DNA from: an uncultured delta proteobacterium
GTDB taxonomy: Bacteria > Desulfobacterota > Syntrophia > Syntrophales > CAMTWB01
NCBI GenBank assembly: GCA_947085375.1
Contig: CAMTWB010000026.1
Coordinates: 7,689-71,688 of the forward strand
DNA length: 64,000 nucleotides
Direction of reading: 5' to 3'
Shown in pieces: positions 5,268 to 63,908 of this stretch. Position numbers and translations under genes: made by a program. Within the stretch, counting starts at the first letter, position 1; each line of letters opens with the position of its first letter. Under the pieces are notes generated by a model, which was not told the origin of the DNA, did no database searches, and was given only the letters and a program-made list of their open reading frames with translations.

Positions 5268-5286
5268 AAAGTCGCAAAATGATTGC

Positions 5287-5520
5287 TTTCTGAGGCCATG
5301 CTTAAGTCATGGCCGCCTGGTCGTTGTCATTTGCTCGCGCCTACACTATAAAACGGACGAGGCGGAGCTCGTCCCTCCGAGAAGACAATGCCCATAGGTT
5401 TTCCTGGAGCCATGTCCACCGGTTTTTCGGAGGGCCATGCTCCGTCATGGCCGTAAGGCGTTGCCGTTTGCCCGCGCTTACACTATAATGCGGACGCGAC
5501 TTAAGCGCGTCCCTCCGAAA
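5287..5520 (+). repeat. REP/BIME-like P-family repeat, two tandem units
   Basis: Units contain the hairpins GGCCATG-N6-CATGGCC and GGACGAG-N6-CTCGTCC (second unit GGACGCG-N6-CGCGTCC), bracketed by CGGAGGG ... CCCTCCG. Confidence 0.8.
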
Positions 5521-5565
5521 TTGAAAAAGGACGTCCTTTTGCCGCGTCATCAAAAAGGAGTAATC

Positions 5566-7194
5566 ATGTCTCATCACCAGGCCGGGGTCAAAAGCCTTCC
5601 CCCCTGCCGGCAGGCCTGTCCGGCAGGGGTAGATGTCCCCCGTTACATCCGCCAGATCCAGGAAGGCCGTTTCAACGATGCCCGCCTTACCGTCAGGGAG
5701 CGTATTCCTTTTTCCGCGGTCTGCGGTTATGCCTGTCTTCACCCCTGTGAGGCCAGGTGTGCCCGAATCCAGTTCGACGAAACGATTGCCATCCGGATGC
5801 TTAAACTGGCCGCGGAAGAATACGGCAAGATCCAGGCCCGTCCGCCGGAGAAACTTCCCCCCTCGGGCCAAAGGATTGCCATCGTCGGTTCCGGCCCGGG
5901 CGGCCTTACCGCTGCCTATTACCTGGCGAAGATGGGCCATTGCCCCGTCATATTCGAGGCCCGGGAGAAAGCGGGGGGACTCCTGCGTTACGGCATACCC
6001 TCCTACCGCCTCCCCCGGGAGGCCCTTGATCTGGAAATAGACCTCATTCGGGCGCACGGCGTCGAGATTCGCCTCAATACCCCCGTTTTTTCCCCTAAGC
6101 AGCTTTTTGACGATGGTTTCACCGCCGTTCTATTGGCGGTAGGCGCCTGGCAGCCCCTGGGCATGGGCATCCCCGGGGAAGATTCACCCCTGGTGGTGGA
6201 TGGTTTGTCGTTCTTAAGAGCGGTCAATGCCGGCAGCCAGCCCGCAATGGATAGGAAACGAGTCCTGGTGGTGGGCGGAGGAAACACCGCTATCGATGCC
6301 GCAAGATCATCGCGCCGCCTGGGTGCGGAAGCAACCATCCTCTACCGCCGCCGCAGGGAGGATATGCCGGCCAGTGACGAAGAGATCGAGGATGCCCTGG
6401 AGGAAGGTGTTGCGATCATGTCGCACACCCTCCCGGTCGCCGTTTTCGGCCAGGAGGTAACCTGCCAGAAGATGACCGAAGGCCCGCCGGACGCAAGTGG
6501 CCGTCCCACCCCACTGCCCCAGCCGAGAAGCGACTTTATCATAACCGCCGACCTCATCGTTGTTGCCATCGGCCAAAGAGGCATGGCGGCAAAGCTGGCC
6601 GTGGAGGAAACCGGGGGTGGCCGGGTTAAGGTTGATCCGGAGACTTGCGCCACCTCCACCCAGGGCCTTTTTGCCGCCGGCGACGCGGTACTGGGGCCAG
6701 CGAGCATTATCGACGCCATTGCCCAGGGGAGAAAAGCCGCCGCCGCAATCGACAGGTTTCTGGGCGGTGCCGGCAATATCGACCAGGATACACCGGCTAC
6801 CGCAGGAGAAGCACCAGACGCAGTCCCACGGGGGGTTGCCCGGGCTAAAAGGAAAAAGGCGCCGCCACAGGAAAGATTACAAGGCTTTAACCCGGTGGAG
6901 CAGGTGTTTGAGCGGGTGGTCGCAATCGGTGAGGCGGGGCGCTGCCTGTCTTGCGATCTGCGAGACTTTGACGTCAGCGTCAACGATCAACTCTGCAAGG
7001 AATGCGGTTTCTGTCAGGAAGTTTGTTCCTTGAGCGTTTTTGAAACCTCCGATTCCTTCAACGTTCAGGGATACCGGCCGACCCTGGTCAAGAGCGACGC
7101 CCGTTGCATCGGTTGTCTGAGCTGCCTTTACATCTGCCCGGATTTTGCAATCACGATCCGGGATGGGAAAGTGGAGGGCCGAGTAAATAATTGA
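5566..7194 (+). CDS. GltD-family NAD(P)H-dependent oxidoreductase with C-terminal 2x[4Fe-4S] ferredoxin domain
   Basis: N-terminal Cys cluster (CRQACPAG...CGYACLHPCEARC). Dinucleotide folds IAIVGSGPGGLTAAYYL and VLVVGGGNTAIDAA. C-terminal CKECGFCQEVC and CIGCLSCLYICP. ATG at 5566 follows AAAGGAG. Confidence 0.85.
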   Translation: MSHHQAGVKSLPPCRQACPAGVDVPRYIRQIQEGRFNDARLTVRERIPFSAVCGYACLHPCEARCARIQFDETIAIRMLKLAAEEYGKIQARPPEKLPPSGQRIAIVGSGPGGLTAAYYLAKMGHCPVIFEAREKAGGLLRYGIPSYRLPREALDLEIDLIRAHGVEIRLNTPVFSPKQLFDDGFTAVLLAVGAWQPLGMGIPGEDSPLVVDGLSFLRAVNAGSQPAMDRKRVLVVGGGNTAIDAARSSRRLGAEATILYRRRREDMPASDEEIEDALEEGVAIMSHTLPVAVFGQEVTCQKMTEGPPDASGRPTPLPQPRSDFIITADLIVVAIGQRGMAAKLAVEETGGGRVKVDPETCATSTQGLFAAGDAVLGPASIIDAIAQGRKAAAAIDRFLGGAGNIDQDTPATAGEAPDAVPRGVARAKRKKAPPQERLQGFNPVEQVFERVVAIGEAGRCLSCDLRDFDVSVNDQLCKECGFCQEVCSLSVFETSDSFNVQGYRPTLVKSDARCIGCLSCLYICPDFAITIRDGKVEGRVNN

Positions 7195-7364
7195 CGAGGC
7201 GTTAAAAAGTAGAAATACCCCCTCCCCCTGATGGGAGATGGTGCTAGGAGAGGGTGACAATAGTCGATATATCGAATGTTTAAGCCCCCTACCCCCTACC
7301 CCCTACCCCCTCCCCCTGCCCCTCCCGCCGGGGGAGGGGAAATCGGAGTTTTACCGCTTCATCA
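7192..7364 (+). mobile_element. A-type MITE-like element (173 bp)
   Basis: TIRs are TGACGAGGCGTTAAAA ... TTTTACCGCTTCATCA. Internal G/C hairpins include CCCCTCCC-GCCG-GGGAGGGG, with a central palindrome CGATATATCG. No ORF. Near-identical copies elsewhere in the window. Confidence 0.8.
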
Positions 7365-16359: not shown

Positions 16360-16457
16360 TGACGACTTCATCAAATATGATGAAGCGGCAAAAAGTCCGA
16401 TCTCCCCTCTCCTGGTGGGAGGGGCAGTGGGAGGGGGTTTTGACTTTTTACACTGAG
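16360..16457 (+). repeat. TIR fragments plus half A-type element
   Basis: TGACGACTTCATCA-AATA-TGATGAAGCGGCAAAAAGT..., then CCCCTCTCC-TGGT-GGGAGGGG, ending GACTTTTTACACTG. Confidence 0.6.
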
Positions 16458-16458
16458 A

Positions 16459-16606
16459 CAATTGCAGAAGTCTCAAAAATTTCCTCTCCCCTTCAAGGGA
16501 GAGGGTTTTAGGTGAGGGGGGAATAATAAGTATAATCTATAGATTTTATCACACCCTCCCCTTAATTTCCTCCCATAAAGGGAGGGGAAACAGACTTTTG
16601 CAATTG
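16459..16606 (+). mobile_element. MITE-like element with distinct TIR (CAATTGCAGAAGTCT / AGACTTTTGCAATTG)
   Basis: 15-bp imperfect TIRs. Internal hairpins CCTCTCCCC-TTCAA-GGGAGAGG and CCTCCC-ATAAA-GGGAGG. No ORF. Confidence 0.65.
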
Positions 16607-17756: not shown

Positions 17757-17789
17757 GGTTTTTCGGAGGGCCATGCTCAGTCATAGCCG
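17757..17789 (+). repeat. P-family REP singlet
   Basis: GGTTTTTCGGAGGGCCATGCTCAGTCATAGCCG, which is the first hairpin of the P unit only. Confidence 0.6.
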
Positions 17790-23583: not shown

Positions 23584-23597
23584 CGCAGTAACTACAT

Positions 23598-23759
23598 TGA
23601 CGAGGCGGTAAAAACTCCCATTTCCCCTCTCCCGGTGGGAGGGGGCAGGGGGAGGGGGTAGGGGGCTTAAACATTCGATATATCGACTATTATCACCCTC
23701 TCCTAGAACCCTCTTACATCAAGGGAGAGGGGGTCTTTCTACTTTTTACCGCATCATCA
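23598..23759 (-). mobile_element. A-type MITE-like element (inverted orientation) between fliN and fliO
   Basis: TGACGAGGCGGTAAAAACT ... ACTTTTTACCGCATCATCA. Its reverse complement aligns with 7192..7364. Confidence 0.8.
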
Positions 23760-30463: not shown

Positions 30464-30630
30464 TGATGACACTGTAAAAAGTCAAAAGACCCCCGCTCCC
30501 TTGATGGGAGAGGGTTCTAGGAGAGGGTGATAATAGTTGATATATCGAATGTTTGATCCCCCTCCCCCTCCCCCTGCCCCTGCCCCCTCCCACTGGGGGA
30601 GGGGGAATCGGAGTTTTTACCGCGTCATCA
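30464..30630 (+). mobile_element. A-type MITE-like element between flhF and flhG
   Basis: TGATGACACTGTAAAAAGT ... GTTTTTACCGCGTCATCA. The interior aligns with 7192..7364. Confidence 0.8.
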
Positions 30631-33787: not shown

Positions 33788-33804
33788 ATATTCACCAGCG
33801 GCTT

Positions 33805-33865
33805 TGATGAAGCGCTAAAAACTCCGATTACCACTTAGGTGGGAAGGGGGCAGGGGGAGGGGGAT
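33805..33865 (-). repeat. truncated half of an A-type element
   Basis: TGATGAAGCGCTAAAAACTCCGATTACC...GGGGGCAGGGGGAGGGGG, then homology stops. Confidence 0.6.
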
Positions 33866-35924: not shown

Positions 35925-36127
35925 GGGGTTTTTCGGAGGGCCATGCTCCGTCATGGCCGCAAGGGCGTTGCCTTGGGAACAGGCGAAAATGTGGACGCGG
36001 CTTAAGCGGCGAACTGGCGATCAAACGGCAATGACAGTGAATATTGCCTCCGCAGCCGGACGAGACGGAGCTCGTCCCTCCGAAAAACCAGTGCCCAGAG
36101 GGGGTTTTTCGGAGGGCCATGCTCCGT
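35925..36127 (+). repeat. P-family REP/BIME-like repeat (one interrupted unit plus a singlet)
   Basis: GGTTTTTCGGAGGGCCATGCTCCGTCATGGCCG ... CCGGACGAGACGGAGCTCGTCCCTCCGAAAA, followed by a second GGTTTTTCGGAGGGCCATGCTCCGT. Confidence 0.75.
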
Positions 36128-41639: not shown

Positions 41640-41820
41640 TTAAGCAAATCTCCCCTAACCCCTCATTCCCAAAGAGGGGGACAATTTGGATGGTTAATTT
41701 TCAGGAAGAGGACAATTGTAAGGCTGGTTTTACCCCCCCTTTACCAAAGGGGGGCAGGGGGATTGGTTTTACCCCCCCTTTACCAACGGGGGGCAGGGGG
41801 GATTTGGTGAATTGTCGCAG
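41640..41820 (+). repeat. G-box hairpin repeat cluster (R-related modules)
   Basis: AAATCTCCCCTAACCCCTC...GAGGGGG, then two tandem CCCCCCCTTTACCAA(A/C)GGGGGGCAGGGGG modules. Confidence 0.7.
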
Positions 41821-45028: not shown

Positions 45029-45277
45029 ATGCTGATCCTGACTAGAAAACTAGGCGAATCAATTACGATAGGCAGCGAAGTCAAGGTCACAATACTGGGG
45101 ATAAAAGGCAATAACATCAGGCTGGGAATAGTCGCTCCGCCGGAGTTGGCAGTGCACCGGGAAGAAATATACCGGCTCATTCAGGAGCAAAACATCGCCT
45201 CCGCGCGCAATGTACGCAATGTAGCGGCGAAAGTTCACTCCCTGGGTAAGCTCTGGCAAAACATGAAAGAAGGCTAA
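45029..45277 (+). CDS. csrA: carbon storage regulator CsrA (flagellar type)
   Basis: [48 protein letters not shown]. Confidence 0.95.
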
Positions 45278-45288
45278 AGGAGGCTCGC

Positions 45289-45720
45289 TTGCTCGAATTC
45301 GATCAATTGTCCATTGAAGAAAATAACCCGATAACCATCAGGGGTGGCATTCTGGGTTTTGAAGAATTGAGTCGCTACACCATCGTTGCCGACGAACCTG
45401 ATGCCCCCCTCTACTGGCTCCAGTCGCTCGACGATCCGGAGTTGGCCTTTATAGTTGTAGATCCATTTTTAATTAAAGCGGATTATGACCCCCGGTTCAA
45501 CCCGGCGGATCTGGCCGCCCTGGAAATAGACGACATCAGAGAAGATGCGATATTGCTCGCCATTATTACCTTGAAGGAAGACTATCTCCAAAGTACCGCC
45601 AACCTGATGGCCCCCGTTGTAATCAATAAAAAGACGCTGATCGCCAAACAGATAATCCTGGATGACCGCTCGCAGCCCATTCGCTACAATATAATATCAA
45701 CCGCCGCCAGCGGCGTTTGA
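45289..45720 (+). CDS. fliW: flagellar assembly factor FliW
   Basis: ITIRGGILGFEELSRYTIV...PLYWLQSLDDPELAFIVVDPF is the FliW signature. TTG start. Confidence 0.9.
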   Translation: MLEFDQLSIEENNPITIRGGILGFEELSRYTIVADEPDAPLYWLQSLDDPELAFIVVDPFLIKADYDPRFNPADLAALEIDDIREDAILLAIITLKEDYLQSTANLMAPVVINKKTLIAKQIILDDRSQPIRYNIISTAASGV

Positions 45721-45745: not shown

Positions 45746-45846
45746 TTTTCTCGGAGGGACGAGCTTAAGTCTCGTCCGGGTTATTGCGCAGGGCGGGGCA
45801 ACCGGCAACGCCCTTGCGGCCATGACGAAGCATGGCCCTCCGAAAG
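45746..45846 (-). repeat. P-family REP/BIME-like unit (inverted) in the convergent fliW / fliS spacer
   Basis: CTCGGAGGGACGAGCTTAAGTCTCGTCCG...GCGGCCATGACGAAGCATGGCCCTCCGAAAG. Confidence 0.8.
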
Positions 45847-49610: not shown

Positions 49611-49752
49611 TTTATTTTCCTCCGTGAAGTTTGTTTGGTTGTCGTGGCGACAACTCGTTGCGGGCTTCCTGCCCTTTCTTGTTTTTGGCGTCGTACCCCT
49701 TTTACGCTTTTCACCTCCCTTCCCGGTTCGCGCCTGTTGCCCTTTGGCTAGT
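49611..49752 (-). promoter_or_regulatory. fliC 5' leader with two candidate CsrA sites
   Basis: On the minus strand, the hairpin GGGC-AGGAA-GCCC (49661-49673) presents GGA in its loop. CACGGAGGA (49618-49626) overlaps the Shine-Dalgarno. Confidence 0.5.
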
Positions 49753-49779
49753 TTATCGGATTTATTGCCGGGAACTTTA
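49753..49779 (-). promoter_or_regulatory. sigma-28 promoter of fliC
   Basis: The minus strand reads TAAAGTTC-N11-TCCGATAA compared with TAAAGTTT-N11-GCCGATAA. Confidence 0.7.
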
Positions 49780-49834: not shown

Positions 49835-50197
49835 CGGTTTTTCGGAGGGCCATGCTCCGTCATGGCCGCAAGGGCGTTGCCGGTTACCCGCGCTTGTGCC
49901 ATAAAACGGACGAGACGAAGCTCGTCCCTCCGAAAAGACAATGCCCATTTGATTGTTTGGTTGCTATATGCACCGGTTTTTCGGAGGGCCATGCTTCGTC
50001 ATGGCCGTGAGGGCGTTGCCGGTTACCCGCGCTTGTGCCATAAAACGGACGAGACGAAGCTCGTCCCTCCGAAAAGACAATGCCCATAGGATTGAATGGT
50101 TTTTAGGAGGGCCATGCTCCGTCATGGCCGTAAGGGCGTTGCCGGTTGCCTCCGCATACGCCATAAAGCGGACGAGACGGAGCTCGTCCCTCCGAGA
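49835..50197 (+). repeat. three tandem P-family REP/BIME-like units
   Basis: Units start at 49835, 49975 and 50098 (GGTTTTTCGGAGGGCCATGCTCCGTCATGGCCG...ACGGACGAGACGAAGCTCGTCCCTCCGAAAAG). Confidence 0.9.
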
Positions 50198-50242
50198 GAA
50201 GAATACCCAACTTCCGGGGTACAAAATAAATGCAACCAAAAT

Positions 50243-50269
50243 TTAAGTTTAAACTGTATCTGCCGATAA
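50243..50269 (+). promoter_or_regulatory. sigma-28 promoter upstream of the 71-aa ORF
   Basis: TTAAGTTT-N11-GCCGATAA, with an 8/8 match in the -10 element and exact spacing. Confidence 0.75.
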
Positions 50270-50297: not shown

Positions 50298-50513
50298 ATG
50301 ACCATAACCTCATATCAGATTGACGGGCTGCTCAAGGCCTACAGCCGCCAGAACAAGTCGGTGTCGGCGCTGGCAAAAGAAGCCGATTCCGCACGAAATA
50401 TTCCAACCACCGACATCGTCGAACTATCGATCCCCCTGGCAAATAAGGCCGAAGCCTTCGAGAAGGTTTCCTACAGTCTGGTGGATGTTCTACTTAAGAA
50501 CAAAACCAAGTAG
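50298..50513 (+). CDS. small hypothetical protein (71 aa) under a sigma-28 promoter
   Basis: The ATG lies 8 nt after GGGAGGG. The sigma-28 promoter ends 29 nt upstream of the ATG. No motif recognised. Confidence 0.6.
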   Translation: MTITSYQIDGLLKAYSRQNKSVSALAKEADSARNIPTTDIVELSIPLANKAEAFEKVSYSLVDVLLKNKTK

Positions 50514-52129: not shown

Positions 52130-52300
52130 GGTCTGCGACAAAAATGTGGGTATTCTGTTCTTGCAGAGACTTATCCCCCCTTTCGAAAAGGGGGGCAGGG
52201 GGGATTTATAATAAAAGTAAGAGGTAATTTTTTATCCGTCAAATCTCCCCCAACCCCTCTTTTCTAAAGAGGGGAGAAAAACCGCTCTACCTATAAATTT
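52130..52300 (+). repeat. R-type repeat (about 171 bp), copy 1
   Basis: Its reverse complement aligns along its length with 58684..58855. Contains CCCCCCTTTCGAAAAGGGGGG and CCCCTCTTTTCTAAAGAGGGG hairpins. Overlaps the trmFO stop codon. Confidence 0.85.
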
Positions 52301-58683: not shown

Positions 58684-58855
58684 ACAAATTTATGGGTAGA
58701 GCGGGTTTTCTCCCCTCTTTAACAAAGAGGGGTCAGGGGAAATTTGACGGACAATAAATAACTTTCTGATTTTATTGCAAATCACCACTGCCACCCTTTT
58801 CGAAAGGGGGGTGAGTCTCTGCGTAAATACGATACCCACATTTTTGTCGCAGACC
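58684..58855 (-). repeat. R-type repeat, copy 2 (inverted relative to copy 1)
   Basis: AAATTTATGGGTAGAGCGGGTTTTCTCCCCTC...ACCCACATTTTTGTCGCAGACC aligns with the reverse complement of 52130..52300. Confidence 0.85.
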
Positions 58856-58928: not shown

Positions 58929-59005
<77 letters not shown>

Positions 59006-59009
59006 TAAT

Positions 59010-59087
59010 GGTGGGTGTAGCTCAGCTGGTTAGAGTGCCGGGTTGTGGCCCCGGAGGTCGAGGGTTCGAATCCCTTCACTCACCCCA
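59010..59087 (+). tRNA. tRNA-His (anticodon GTG)
   Basis: Extra 5' G(-1), acceptor GTGGGTG/CACTCAC, anticodon arm CCGGG-TTGTGGC-CCCGG, T-loop GGTTCGAATCC, encoded CCA. Confidence 0.9.
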
Positions 59088-59104
59088 TTATTTCATCTTA
59101 CCAA

Positions 59105-59181
59105 GCGCCCGTAGCTCAGCTGGATAGAGTGGCAGACTTCGAATCTGCAAGTCGTAGGTTCGAATCCTACCGGGCGCGCCA
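59105..59181 (+). tRNA. tRNA-Arg (anticodon TCG)
   Basis: Acceptor GCGCCCG/CGGGCGC, anticodon arm GCAGA-CTTCGAA-TCTGC, T-loop GGTTCGAATCC, encoded CCA. Confidence 0.9.
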
Positions 59182-63686: not shown

Positions 63687-63766
63687 AAGTCATACCTCTT
63701 TTTGGAATAATCTATTTCGGAAGATCATGCTTCGTCATAGCCATAAAATACCTCGCCTTTTGGCAA

Positions 63767-63908
63767 TGAGGAGGCGGTAAAAACTCCTATTCCCCCTCCC
63801 CCGGTGGGGGGGCAGGGGGAGGGTGGATGTAAGCATTCGATATGTCAACTATTATCACCATCTCCCCTCAAAGGAGAGGAGCCCTTTTGACTATTTACAG
63901 TGCCATCA
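63767..63908 (-). mobile_element. A-type MITE-like element upstream of aspS
   Basis: TGAGGAGGCGGTAAAAACTCC ... GACTATTTACAGTGCCATCA. The interior aligns with 23598..23759. Confidence 0.75.

Follow-up and report, generated by a model that had tools for sequence, protein, structure and literature searches.

Repetitive extragenic palindromic (REP) sequences of Escherichia coli are short palindromes whose hairpin has a 4-nt tag at its 5' foot. Their two stem types (Y and Z) stand in inverted pairs, internal and external linkers alternate, the units form tandem clusters in intergenic DNA as bacterial interspersed mosaic elements (BIMEs), and a single Y1/HUH gene flanked by REPs encodes TnpA-REP, a REP-associated tyrosine transposase (RAYT). 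In Pseudomonas fluorescens, the mobile form is an inverted REP doublet with a short spacer (a REPIN, or REP doublet forming a hairpin), the single RAYT gene is flanked by REPs, and singletons resemble decayed doublets (PMC3116915). Published REP tags are either GTAG and its variants (GYAG, GYRG, GTRG, GTMG, and GTGG), which are associated with RAYTs, or CGTC, which has no transposase (PMC3733652), and Quentin et al. (2018) located REPs near RAYT genes by searching for GT[AG]G. We analyzed a 64,000-nt stretch (the window) of contig CAMTWB010000026.1 from an uncultured delta proteobacterium of the Syntrophales, in which a repeat unit of ~100 bp is tripled between the flagellin gene fliC and an open reading frame (ORF) of 71 amino acids (aa). 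These repeats and their relatives in other genomes share the E. coli and P. fluorescens features listed above, with A and B stems in place of Y and Z. We conclude that the units are very probably REP doublets of the REPIN/BIME type, belonging to a family that has its own RAYT in other genomes, for which RAYT-type mobilization is the most likely origin.

Each unit runs from TTTTCGGAG through hairpin A (arms GGCCATG and CATGGCC around the loop CTCCGT or CTTCGT) and ~40 nt of spacer to hairpin B (arms GGACGAG and CTCGTCC around the loop ACGAAG or ACGGAG) and CTCCGAAAA. On the opposite strand, B reads TTTTCGGAG-GGACGAG-CTCCGT-CTCGTCC, so A and B represent one module, inverted, with differences confined to the five inner stem pairs. 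The consensus module has a YGGAG tag at the hairpin foot, GG-N5, the 6-nt loop CTCCGT, and N5'-CC, which gives a 7-bp stem, followed 3' by G(C/T)A. GGAG stands directly at the hairpin foot in all 10 window modules scored, and each 7-bp stem with its 6-nt loop folds as predicted, both as DNA and as RNA. The window holds seven full units of ~100 bp, with 13 intact and 4 degenerate modules counted; all seven are doublets with their tags facing outward and with spacers of 40 nt or, in one case, ~100 nt. Searching for module A (CGGAGGGCCATG-N6-CATGGCC, up to three mismatches) gave 10 matches in the window, namely, seven sites and three opposite-strand echoes of the palindrome, against a shuffle expectation of 0.03. 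The module B query (GGACGAG-N6-CTCGTCCCTCCG) gave six matches, five sites and one echo, against 0.01, and a scan for perfect hairpins of any sequence preceded by GGAG returned the 13 intact modules. An earlier sequence-only reading of this DNA had described the unit as two inverted hairpin modules and the family as REP/BIME-like. The module searches and direct reading of the sequence confirmed the first description, and the second is borne out by the hairpin, the foot tag, the intergenic location, the inverted pairs, and the clusters.

A double change in one stem (GGACGAG to GGACGCG, with pairing preserved) had been taken as a sign that the hairpin itself is selected. The change is real and lies at 5492 to 5516, and a covariance analysis extended compensatory change well beyond that one case. 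We searched metagenomes with the pattern CGGAGGG-N5-CTCCGT-N5-CCGYA, which leaves the five inner stem bases free and whose sampling range does not include the 7-nt CTTAAG-type loops of some window copies, and obtained at least 120 loci. Complementarity was perfect at all five positions in 68 of the 120 matches listed, where chance would give 1 in 1,024 per site, and four of the five positions paired in 21 further sites; the ~30 poorly paired sites agree with a rough estimate of the number of chance matches. There were at least 18 distinct perfect stems among the matches listed. Over 63 distinct 28-mers, both sides had changed at all five free pairs, with 107 double-change cells observed versus 41 ± 5.5 in shuffled data and a covariation score of 0.511 versus 0.158. 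None of 500 shuffles reached either value, and the covariation was lost when the partner column was slid by one to three positions. The hairpin is under selection, since perfect pairing has been kept across 18 different stems among the matches listed.

The tag was equally constant in modules that no search pattern had selected. GGAG stood at the 5' foot in 124 of 134 partner hairpins with family loops, with C or T at position -5, and none of these 134 partner modules had a GTAG tag. Where a stem had one mismatch, G.T on the tag-bearing strand outnumbered A.C by 19 to 7, which suggests that the tag-bearing strand is the one that folds. A pseudoknot between the tag (CGGAG) and the loop (CTCCG) was considered and rejected, as there would be no connecting loops and the pairing is lost in the loop variants CTTCGT, CTCTGT, GTCCCT, and CTTAAGT; we judge this complementarity to be incidental or an alternative pairing. 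We likewise rejected the idea that the 40-nt spacer holds a third, conserved hairpin, because the predicted pairs vary by copy and the spacer sequence is not conserved between genomes. We could recognize no site of the integration host factor type in the spacer by eye.

A covarying stem with a conserved loop and flank could also belong to a structured RNA. The transcribed unit would then fold as a four-way junction or a long hairpin and might act, for example, as a CsrA decoy beside a flagellin gene controlled by CsrA and FliW. One loop per strand does read ACGGAG, the folds are more stable than those of shuffled sequences (z = -3.4 to -5.4), csrA and fliW share the cluster, and the excess of G.T over A.C mismatches on the tag strand would fit an RNA. 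However, the array region has no Rfam match even at E values up to 10, pairing within the spacer is not conserved between genomes, and the modules lie beside unrelated genes in either orientation, whether single, paired, or in 28- to 48-nt direct arrays. In addition, modules of this family border a transposase gene, the array's position upstream of each promoter puts it outside both predicted transcripts, and the units are missing from a relative (JGI contig L158) that shares the csrA-fliW-fliC layout. We therefore consider a structured RNA very unlikely, and we caution that the triple array should not be taken for a regulatory RNA or for part of a promoter. A scan of the window with Rfam 15 at gathering scores returned three tRNAs only; the three tRNA genes stand in a row at 58929 to 59178.

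As REP sequences, the modules belong to a family that reaches far beyond this contig. The sequence-only reading had proposed a repeat family on the basis of the window, and further copies are present in many genomes and metagenomes. The window-type A module accompanied by GGACGCG-ACGGAG-CGCGTCC occurs in metagenome-assembled genomes (MAGs) labeled Smithellaceae, Desulfuromonadales, Chloroflexi, Fermentibacteria, and others; because GGACGCG B modules predominate in other genomes, the stem "variant" at 5492 to 5516 is the common form elsewhere. Outside the window, modules are found singly, in inverted pairs, and in 28- to 48-nt direct arrays. The tag and loop are nearly invariant over several phyla, including Desulfobacterota (Syntrophales), Verrucomicrobiota, Armatimonadota, and Chloroflexota, while the stems are genome specific. 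The pattern had no match among 2.9 million viral contigs, and the motif is absent from the Geobacter "multicopy nucleotide sequence" supplements of PMC2996986 and PMC2700814; by its protein homologues, the host of the window is in any case Syntrophales-like and not a Geobacter.

Two arrangements in these other genomes may be noted on their own account. Head-to-tail arrays of REP modules, with periods of 28, ~30, and 48 nt, occur in contigs L120 (148 to 340), L095 (739 to 825), and L156 (10560 to 10830), and the array in L156, which adjoins a RAYT gene, has been called as a 112-aa ORF. In contigs L034, L043, L050, L052, L060, and L070 of Ga0265320, GGACGCG modules with the CTCCGT loop are regularly paired with GGCTGCG modules whose loop is GTCCCT; both loops of this population are also found in published REPs of Desulfomonile tiedjei.

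We looked for RAYT genes by tblastn, using as the query an E. coli RAYT sequence that was confirmed over residues 48 to 135 by its alignment with 4ER8. RAYT-like genes were present in 6 of the 120 matches listed (L087, L149, L063, L037, L053, and L103), and at each of the six loci an ORF of ~155 to 165 aa, typically ~157 aa, lies directly between inverted modules; the order in L087 is module 1673 (+), gene 1740 to 2228, and module 2269 (-). With NCBIfam NF047646 (REP_Tyr_transpos, the REP-associated tyrosine transposase family), the two proteins tested scored 90.4 and 84.7 bits, above the cutoff of 80, and Pfam Y1_Tnp matched all three proteins scanned. The best solved structure was E. coli TnpArep bound to REP (4ER8; E = 5.5e-8). 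The HUH histidines, Tyr115, W94, and R104 are invariant in the family RAYTs, which are ~157 aa long and carry the motifs DHIH, W[QE], and YVRxNP. Protein searches returned hundreds of homologues with 50 to 60% identity from Verrucomicrobiota, Armatimonadota, Planctomycetes, Kiritimatiellia, and deltaproteobacterial MAGs, some of them named REP-associated tyrosine transposase or RayT by NCBI or JGI.

The association also held in the reverse direction. We examined the surroundings of six homologues picked only for a long contig or an informative name, and five of these six protein-selected genes were flanked by GGAG hairpins whose loop is CTCCGT or CTTCGT and whose stem is specific to the genome. 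The flanking stems were GGCCACG and GGACGCG in L154, GGCAGCG in L155 (Fimbriimonadaceae), GGCGACG in L156 (Cerasicoccus), GGCCACG in L161 (a deltaproteobacterial MAG), and GGCAATG and GGAAACG in L162 (Coraliomargarita). L162 has arrays of doublets with a period of ~120 nt on both sides of its RAYT gene that resemble the triple array of the window, and in L154 and L037 the RAYT gene sits between an A-type GGCCACG module and a B-type GGACGCG module, in the place of the window's 40-nt spacer; this GGCCAYG plus GGACGCG combination is also that of the window. The suggestion of the sequence-only reading that these repeats are mobilized by a RAYT thus stands at the level of the family only, through six pattern-selected loci and five of six protein-selected genomes. 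A noncanonical GGAG REP family is thereby tied to a RAYT clade in several phyla of environmental bacteria.

[quoted passage not shown] A unit of ~100 bp with an 11-bp TIR and a long-hairpin fold has that general shape, and Geobacter uraniireducens has a MITE, Chunjie (PMC3184786). Against this, we read the flanks of all seven units and saw no target-site duplication at any of them, lone single modules occur, the supposed TIR amounts to the REP tag plus the foot of the stem, and the sole gene type found between such ends is a Y1/HUH RAYT rather than a DDE transposase. Because there is no target-site duplication and only a Y1 enzyme lies between the ends, a MITE of the DDE type is hardly credible. 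Chunjie was rejected as a match, since it is 178 to 235 bp long and A+T rich, with 21-bp TIRs and 9-bp direct repeats, and is a different element.

The established REP/RAYT mechanism is the best supported because the units have REP-doublet anatomy and the family has its own RAYT. By analogy with E. coli TnpArep and IS608, we infer that the window units would move through single-stranded DNA and that a cognate RAYT is, or once was, encoded in this genome. The Y1/HUH RAYT would bind the hairpin on single-stranded DNA and read the tag at its foot, and it would cut and rejoin the strand so that gene-less doublets are copied or moved in trans. Such doublets would pile up in intergenic DNA, and tandem arrays such as the triple array would be built by local duplication of a unit with its linker.

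Several observations weigh against this interpretation. The tblastn search finds no RAYT in the 64-kb window, nor in the MAG loci with the window's exact module A (L001 to L027) or the Logan contigs L028 to L033, and L157, one of the six protein-selected RAYT homologues, is without a recognizable flanking module. Copy number and RAYT content of the host were judged from the 64-kb window. RAYT-associated REPs canonically carry GT[AG]G (PMC3733652 and PMC6006769), whereas this family carries GGAG. A nearly identical tag and loop across phyla is unusual, as REPs are normally lineage specific, and the taxonomic labels of some MAGs may reflect misbinning. Finally, the relative that lacks the units at the flagellar sites (L158) is distant; because it shares only 57% protein identity, what appears to be an insertion in the window cannot be told from a loss in the L158 lineage.

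The lack of a RAYT gene in the 64-kb window would also suit relic REPs, a RAYT-derived family whose transposase has been lost from this genome and whose copies are now immobile and either neutral or co-opted, with possible roles as 3' mRNA stabilizers or terminators (fliW/fliS and the POR operon) or as a buffer between divergent sigma-28 promoters. The copies at 5290, 17765, 36111, and 63718 are degenerate or truncated, minus-strand B modules with GTTTTAT score as terminator-like, and CGTC-tagged REPs without a dedicated transposase offer a precedent (PMC3733652). However, array units 1 and 2 are 95% identical and several modules are mutually identical, which suggests recent amplification, and 64 kb is <2% of a typical genome, so little can be concluded from its lack of a single-copy gene. 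We consider relics, whether neutral or co-opted, an unlikely but serious alternative to REP doublets with a cognate RAYT.

All six loci of the REP doublets and their remnants in the window are intergenic, and every copy given in the sequence-only reading exists, at the position given there or a few bases away. The triple array occupies 49838 to 50198. Its three units follow one another head to tail, their starts 139 and 123 nt apart; TRF, at its thresholds, gave no call for it. Doublet 1 (49838 to 49936, +) comprises TTTTCGGAG, hairpin A at 49848 to 49867, the 40-nt spacer, hairpin B at 49908 to 49927, and CTCCGAAAA, and is directly followed by the linker GACAATGCCCATTTGATTG; it scored 146 bits with the covariance model, and its fold had a z score of about -3.4 to -3.7. 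Doublet 2 (49977 to 50075, +; 147 bits) has the loop CTTCGT in module A and is followed by the linker GACAATGCCCATAGGATTG. Doublet 3 (50100 to 50198, +) has the tag AGGAG and a diverged spacer; it did not appear in the output of covariance model R1, although the module searches show it plainly. Several modules in the window are mutually identical, and a linker beginning GACAATGCCCAT is repeated after the units at 5385, 49937, and 50076. In the scan for GGAG with a perfect hairpin, the intact A-type modules were 5429 to 5452, 35935 to 35958, 49844 to 49867, 49983 to 50006, and 50106 to 50129 on the plus strand and 45818 to 45841 on the minus strand. Intact B-type modules lay at 49908 to 49931, 50047 to 50070, and 50170 to 50193 (all -) in the array and at 5355 to 5378 (-), 5492 to 5516 (-; the GGACGCG/CGCGTCC variant), 36058 to 36081 (-), and 45753 to 45777 (+) outside it. 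Degenerate or single modules were found at 5290 to 5314, 17765 to 17788, 36111 to 36127 (truncated), and ~63718 to 63745.

Outside the array, the doublet at 5286 to 5383 (+; 112 bits) has a degenerate A tag (CTGAG) and the loop CTTAAGT and is flanked by a POR-family gene and an oxidoreductase gene, both on the same strand. The doublet that follows it (5423 to 5521, +; 115 bits) carries the B stem variant GGACGCG-ACTTAAG-CGCGTCC. A 7-nt loop, CTTAAGT or ACTTAAG, with a palindromic CTTAAG core replaces CTCCGT at 5301 to 5307, 5499 to 5505, and 45764 to 45770. Just after fliK, the doublet at 35929 to 36087 (+; 108 bits) has ~65 nt inserted in its spacer and is followed by a truncated extra A module (36105 to 36127); the additional DNA within this spacer (35972 to 36057) includes the module-like GGACGCGGCTTAAGCGGCG and could be a nested or decayed insertion. 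The doublet at 45748 to 45846 lies in the opposite orientation (-; 118 bits) within the 199 nt that separate the convergent genes fliW and fliS. A single A-type REP with one stem mismatch (CATAGCC) stands at 17757 to 17789 (+) in the gap where the ddl gene and a CsgG/TPR gene converge, and a weak, degenerate A-type remnant, TTTCGGAAGATCATGCTTCGTCATAGCC, which is 61% identical to the reference, is present at 63712 to 63745 (+) upstream of aspS.

The triple array lies in a flagellar cluster, and we confirmed the fliC gene beside it as a flagellin gene. The sequence-only reading had placed the array between two sigma-28 promoters. We found a sigma-28-type promoter-like site for fliC at 49754 to 49779 (-; TAAAGTTCCCGGCAATAAATCCGATA, TAAAG-N15-TCCGATA) and, by direct reading of the sequence, a sigma-28-like site before the 71-aa ORF at 50243 to 50268 (+; TAAG-N14-GCCGATAA), so the array does lie between two such sites; both are context and not part of the element. 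The 71-aa ORF (50298 to 50513, +) has no Pfam match, and a small ORF of 68 to 72 aa occupies the same place, just upstream of the regulator gene, in L158, L159, and L160; it may encode an uncharacterized small protein of the flagellar regulon. The closest named homologues of the regulator, a response-regulator/GAF/HD-GYP protein, are Syntrophales/Smithellaceae MAG proteins with ~50% identity, and its best homologue (57% identity) is encoded on L158.

L158 has the gene order of the window: fliW is followed by fliS-fliD-(flaG)-fliC on the opposite strand, and then come a 72-aa ORF, preceded by an equivalent TAAAG-N15-GCCGAAAG site, and the regulator. The intergenic distances differ. The fliW-fliS gap is 20 nt in L158 versus 199 nt in the window, fliC and the ORF are ~260 nt apart versus ~690 nt, and the two divergent promoter-like sites are ~25 nt apart versus ~460 nt. 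A covariance model built from the window units had no match in L158 at either flagellar site, and the extra DNA of the window at both sites matches the REP units. One Logan short-read contig from this organism stops exactly at the B hairpin of the fliW-fliS doublet, and a second (L160) starts, by arithmetic on ORF offsets, at about the B module of array unit 3; contig ends of this kind are expected for a high-copy repeat in short-read assembly. REP doublets thus explain both the unusually long intergenic gaps of the flagellar cluster and the breaks in short-read assemblies there.

The position of the REP doublets points to possible effects on the host. Those between fliW and fliS may stabilize or end transcripts, those in the POR operon may contribute to differential expression, and the triple array may insulate or buffer the divergent sigma-28 promoters of fliC and the 71-aa ORF topologically. 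GTTTTAT follows the B modules on the minus strand and raises a terminator-like flag, while A modules and the plus strand have no T run. Separately, the distant relative L158 shares parts of the fliC 5' leader (49611 to 49750, -), among them a GGGCTTCCTGCCC motif. Within the leader are the hairpin GGGC-AGGAA-GCCC (complement of 49662 to 49674) and ACGGAGGAA at the ribosome-binding site, both of which resemble CsrA-binding sites; csrA (45029 to 45277) and fliW (45289 to 45720) are in the same cluster.

Two other kinds of repeat are present in the window. An intergenic family unrelated to the GGAG modules has G/C-tract palindromes (CCCCTCTCC..GGGAGGGG and GGGGGCAGGGGGAGGGG) around a ATTCGATATATCGA core in both orientations and occurs at 7191 to 7352, 16360 to 16520, 23587 to 23745, 30474 to 30617, 33794 to 33864, and 63756 to 63880. 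A third type has the hairpin ACCCCCCC-TTTACCAAA-GGGGGG followed by CAGGGGG (41645 to 41800, 52166 to 52274, and 58703 to 58739) and includes a tandem of two 39-nt copies at 41725 to 41800, just upstream of flgN.

Compared with the E. coli REP/BIME system, the window family has a GGAG tag, a perfect 7-bp stem, and a conserved 6-nt loop, whereas E. coli has GTAG and a longer, bulged stem. The family RAYT is only ~21 to 23% identical to E. coli TnpA-REP, with E100 replaced by Asp and H101 by Arg or Thr, and the hosts are environmental anaerobes, Verrucomicrobiota, and Armatimonadota rather than enterobacteria. We rejected these residues as the cause of the GGAG tag in place of GTAG, since W94 and R104 are conserved and E100D and H101R/T occur also in GTAG-using RAYT subclasses (PMC6006769). 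With most tag-contacting residues conserved, the family is a natural test case for how a RAYT reads GGAG versus GTAG. Unlike the P. fluorescens REPINs (PMC3116915), the window doublet is a heterodimer, and because the stems of its arms differ, it folds either into a pair of hairpins or into one long, imperfect hairpin. REPIN populations are also described as lineage specific and vertically inherited, whereas the tag and loop of the window family are shared across phyla, and the family therefore bears on the question of horizontal REP-RAYT spread.

More remote systems share single features. The ends of IS200/IS605 elements such as IS608 likewise combine a Y1/HUH enzyme, subterminal hairpins on single-stranded DNA, and a short guide at the hairpin foot, but IS608 carries its transposase, its two hairpins share one polarity on a single strand, and insertion takes place 3' of a fixed tetranucleotide; in the window family, the hairpins are inverted and the gene is absent from most copies. 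The CGTC-tagged REPs (Di Nocera et al. 2013, PMC3733652) are a second tag class that also forms tag-outward dimers in intergenic DNA, but they have 8- to 9-bp stems starting with A/T pairs, 4- to 5-nt loops, and no transposase, whereas the window family has a RAYT.

We found no description of a GGAG REP tag in the REP literature searched. REPs with the GGAG tag and CTCCGT loop, together with their ~157-aa RAYTs, may tentatively be seen as an uncatalogued REPtron lineage that spans phyla and retunes its stem in each genome, although we hold this to be less than an even prospect. If it is true, it would mean either repeated horizontal spread or an unusually strict requirement of the enzyme for the tag and loop, in contrast to the lineage-bound, vertically inherited picture of GTAG-tagged REPIN-RAYT systems. 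In practice, the pattern YGGAG-GG-N5-CTCCGT-N5'-CC offers an easy way to mask these repeats when metagenomes are assembled or screened for noncoding RNA. By stem and loop, the nearest published relatives are the REPs of the D. tiedjei RAYT AFM23538.1 (subclass 2.7; Quentin et al. 2018, Table S1). This deltaproteobacterial host also has a 7-bp G+C-rich stem with the loops CTCCGT and GTCCCT, as in GTAG-CGCCGGC-CTCCGT-GCCGGCG, and its REPs differ in that the tag is GTAG or GTGG instead of GGAG. Because stem length and loops match those of D. tiedjei, the window family represents a system of known type whose tag differs by one base. The elements are of modest interest as an ordinary class of bacterial selfish repeat, and their novelty lies in the GGAG tag and the wide taxonomic spread.

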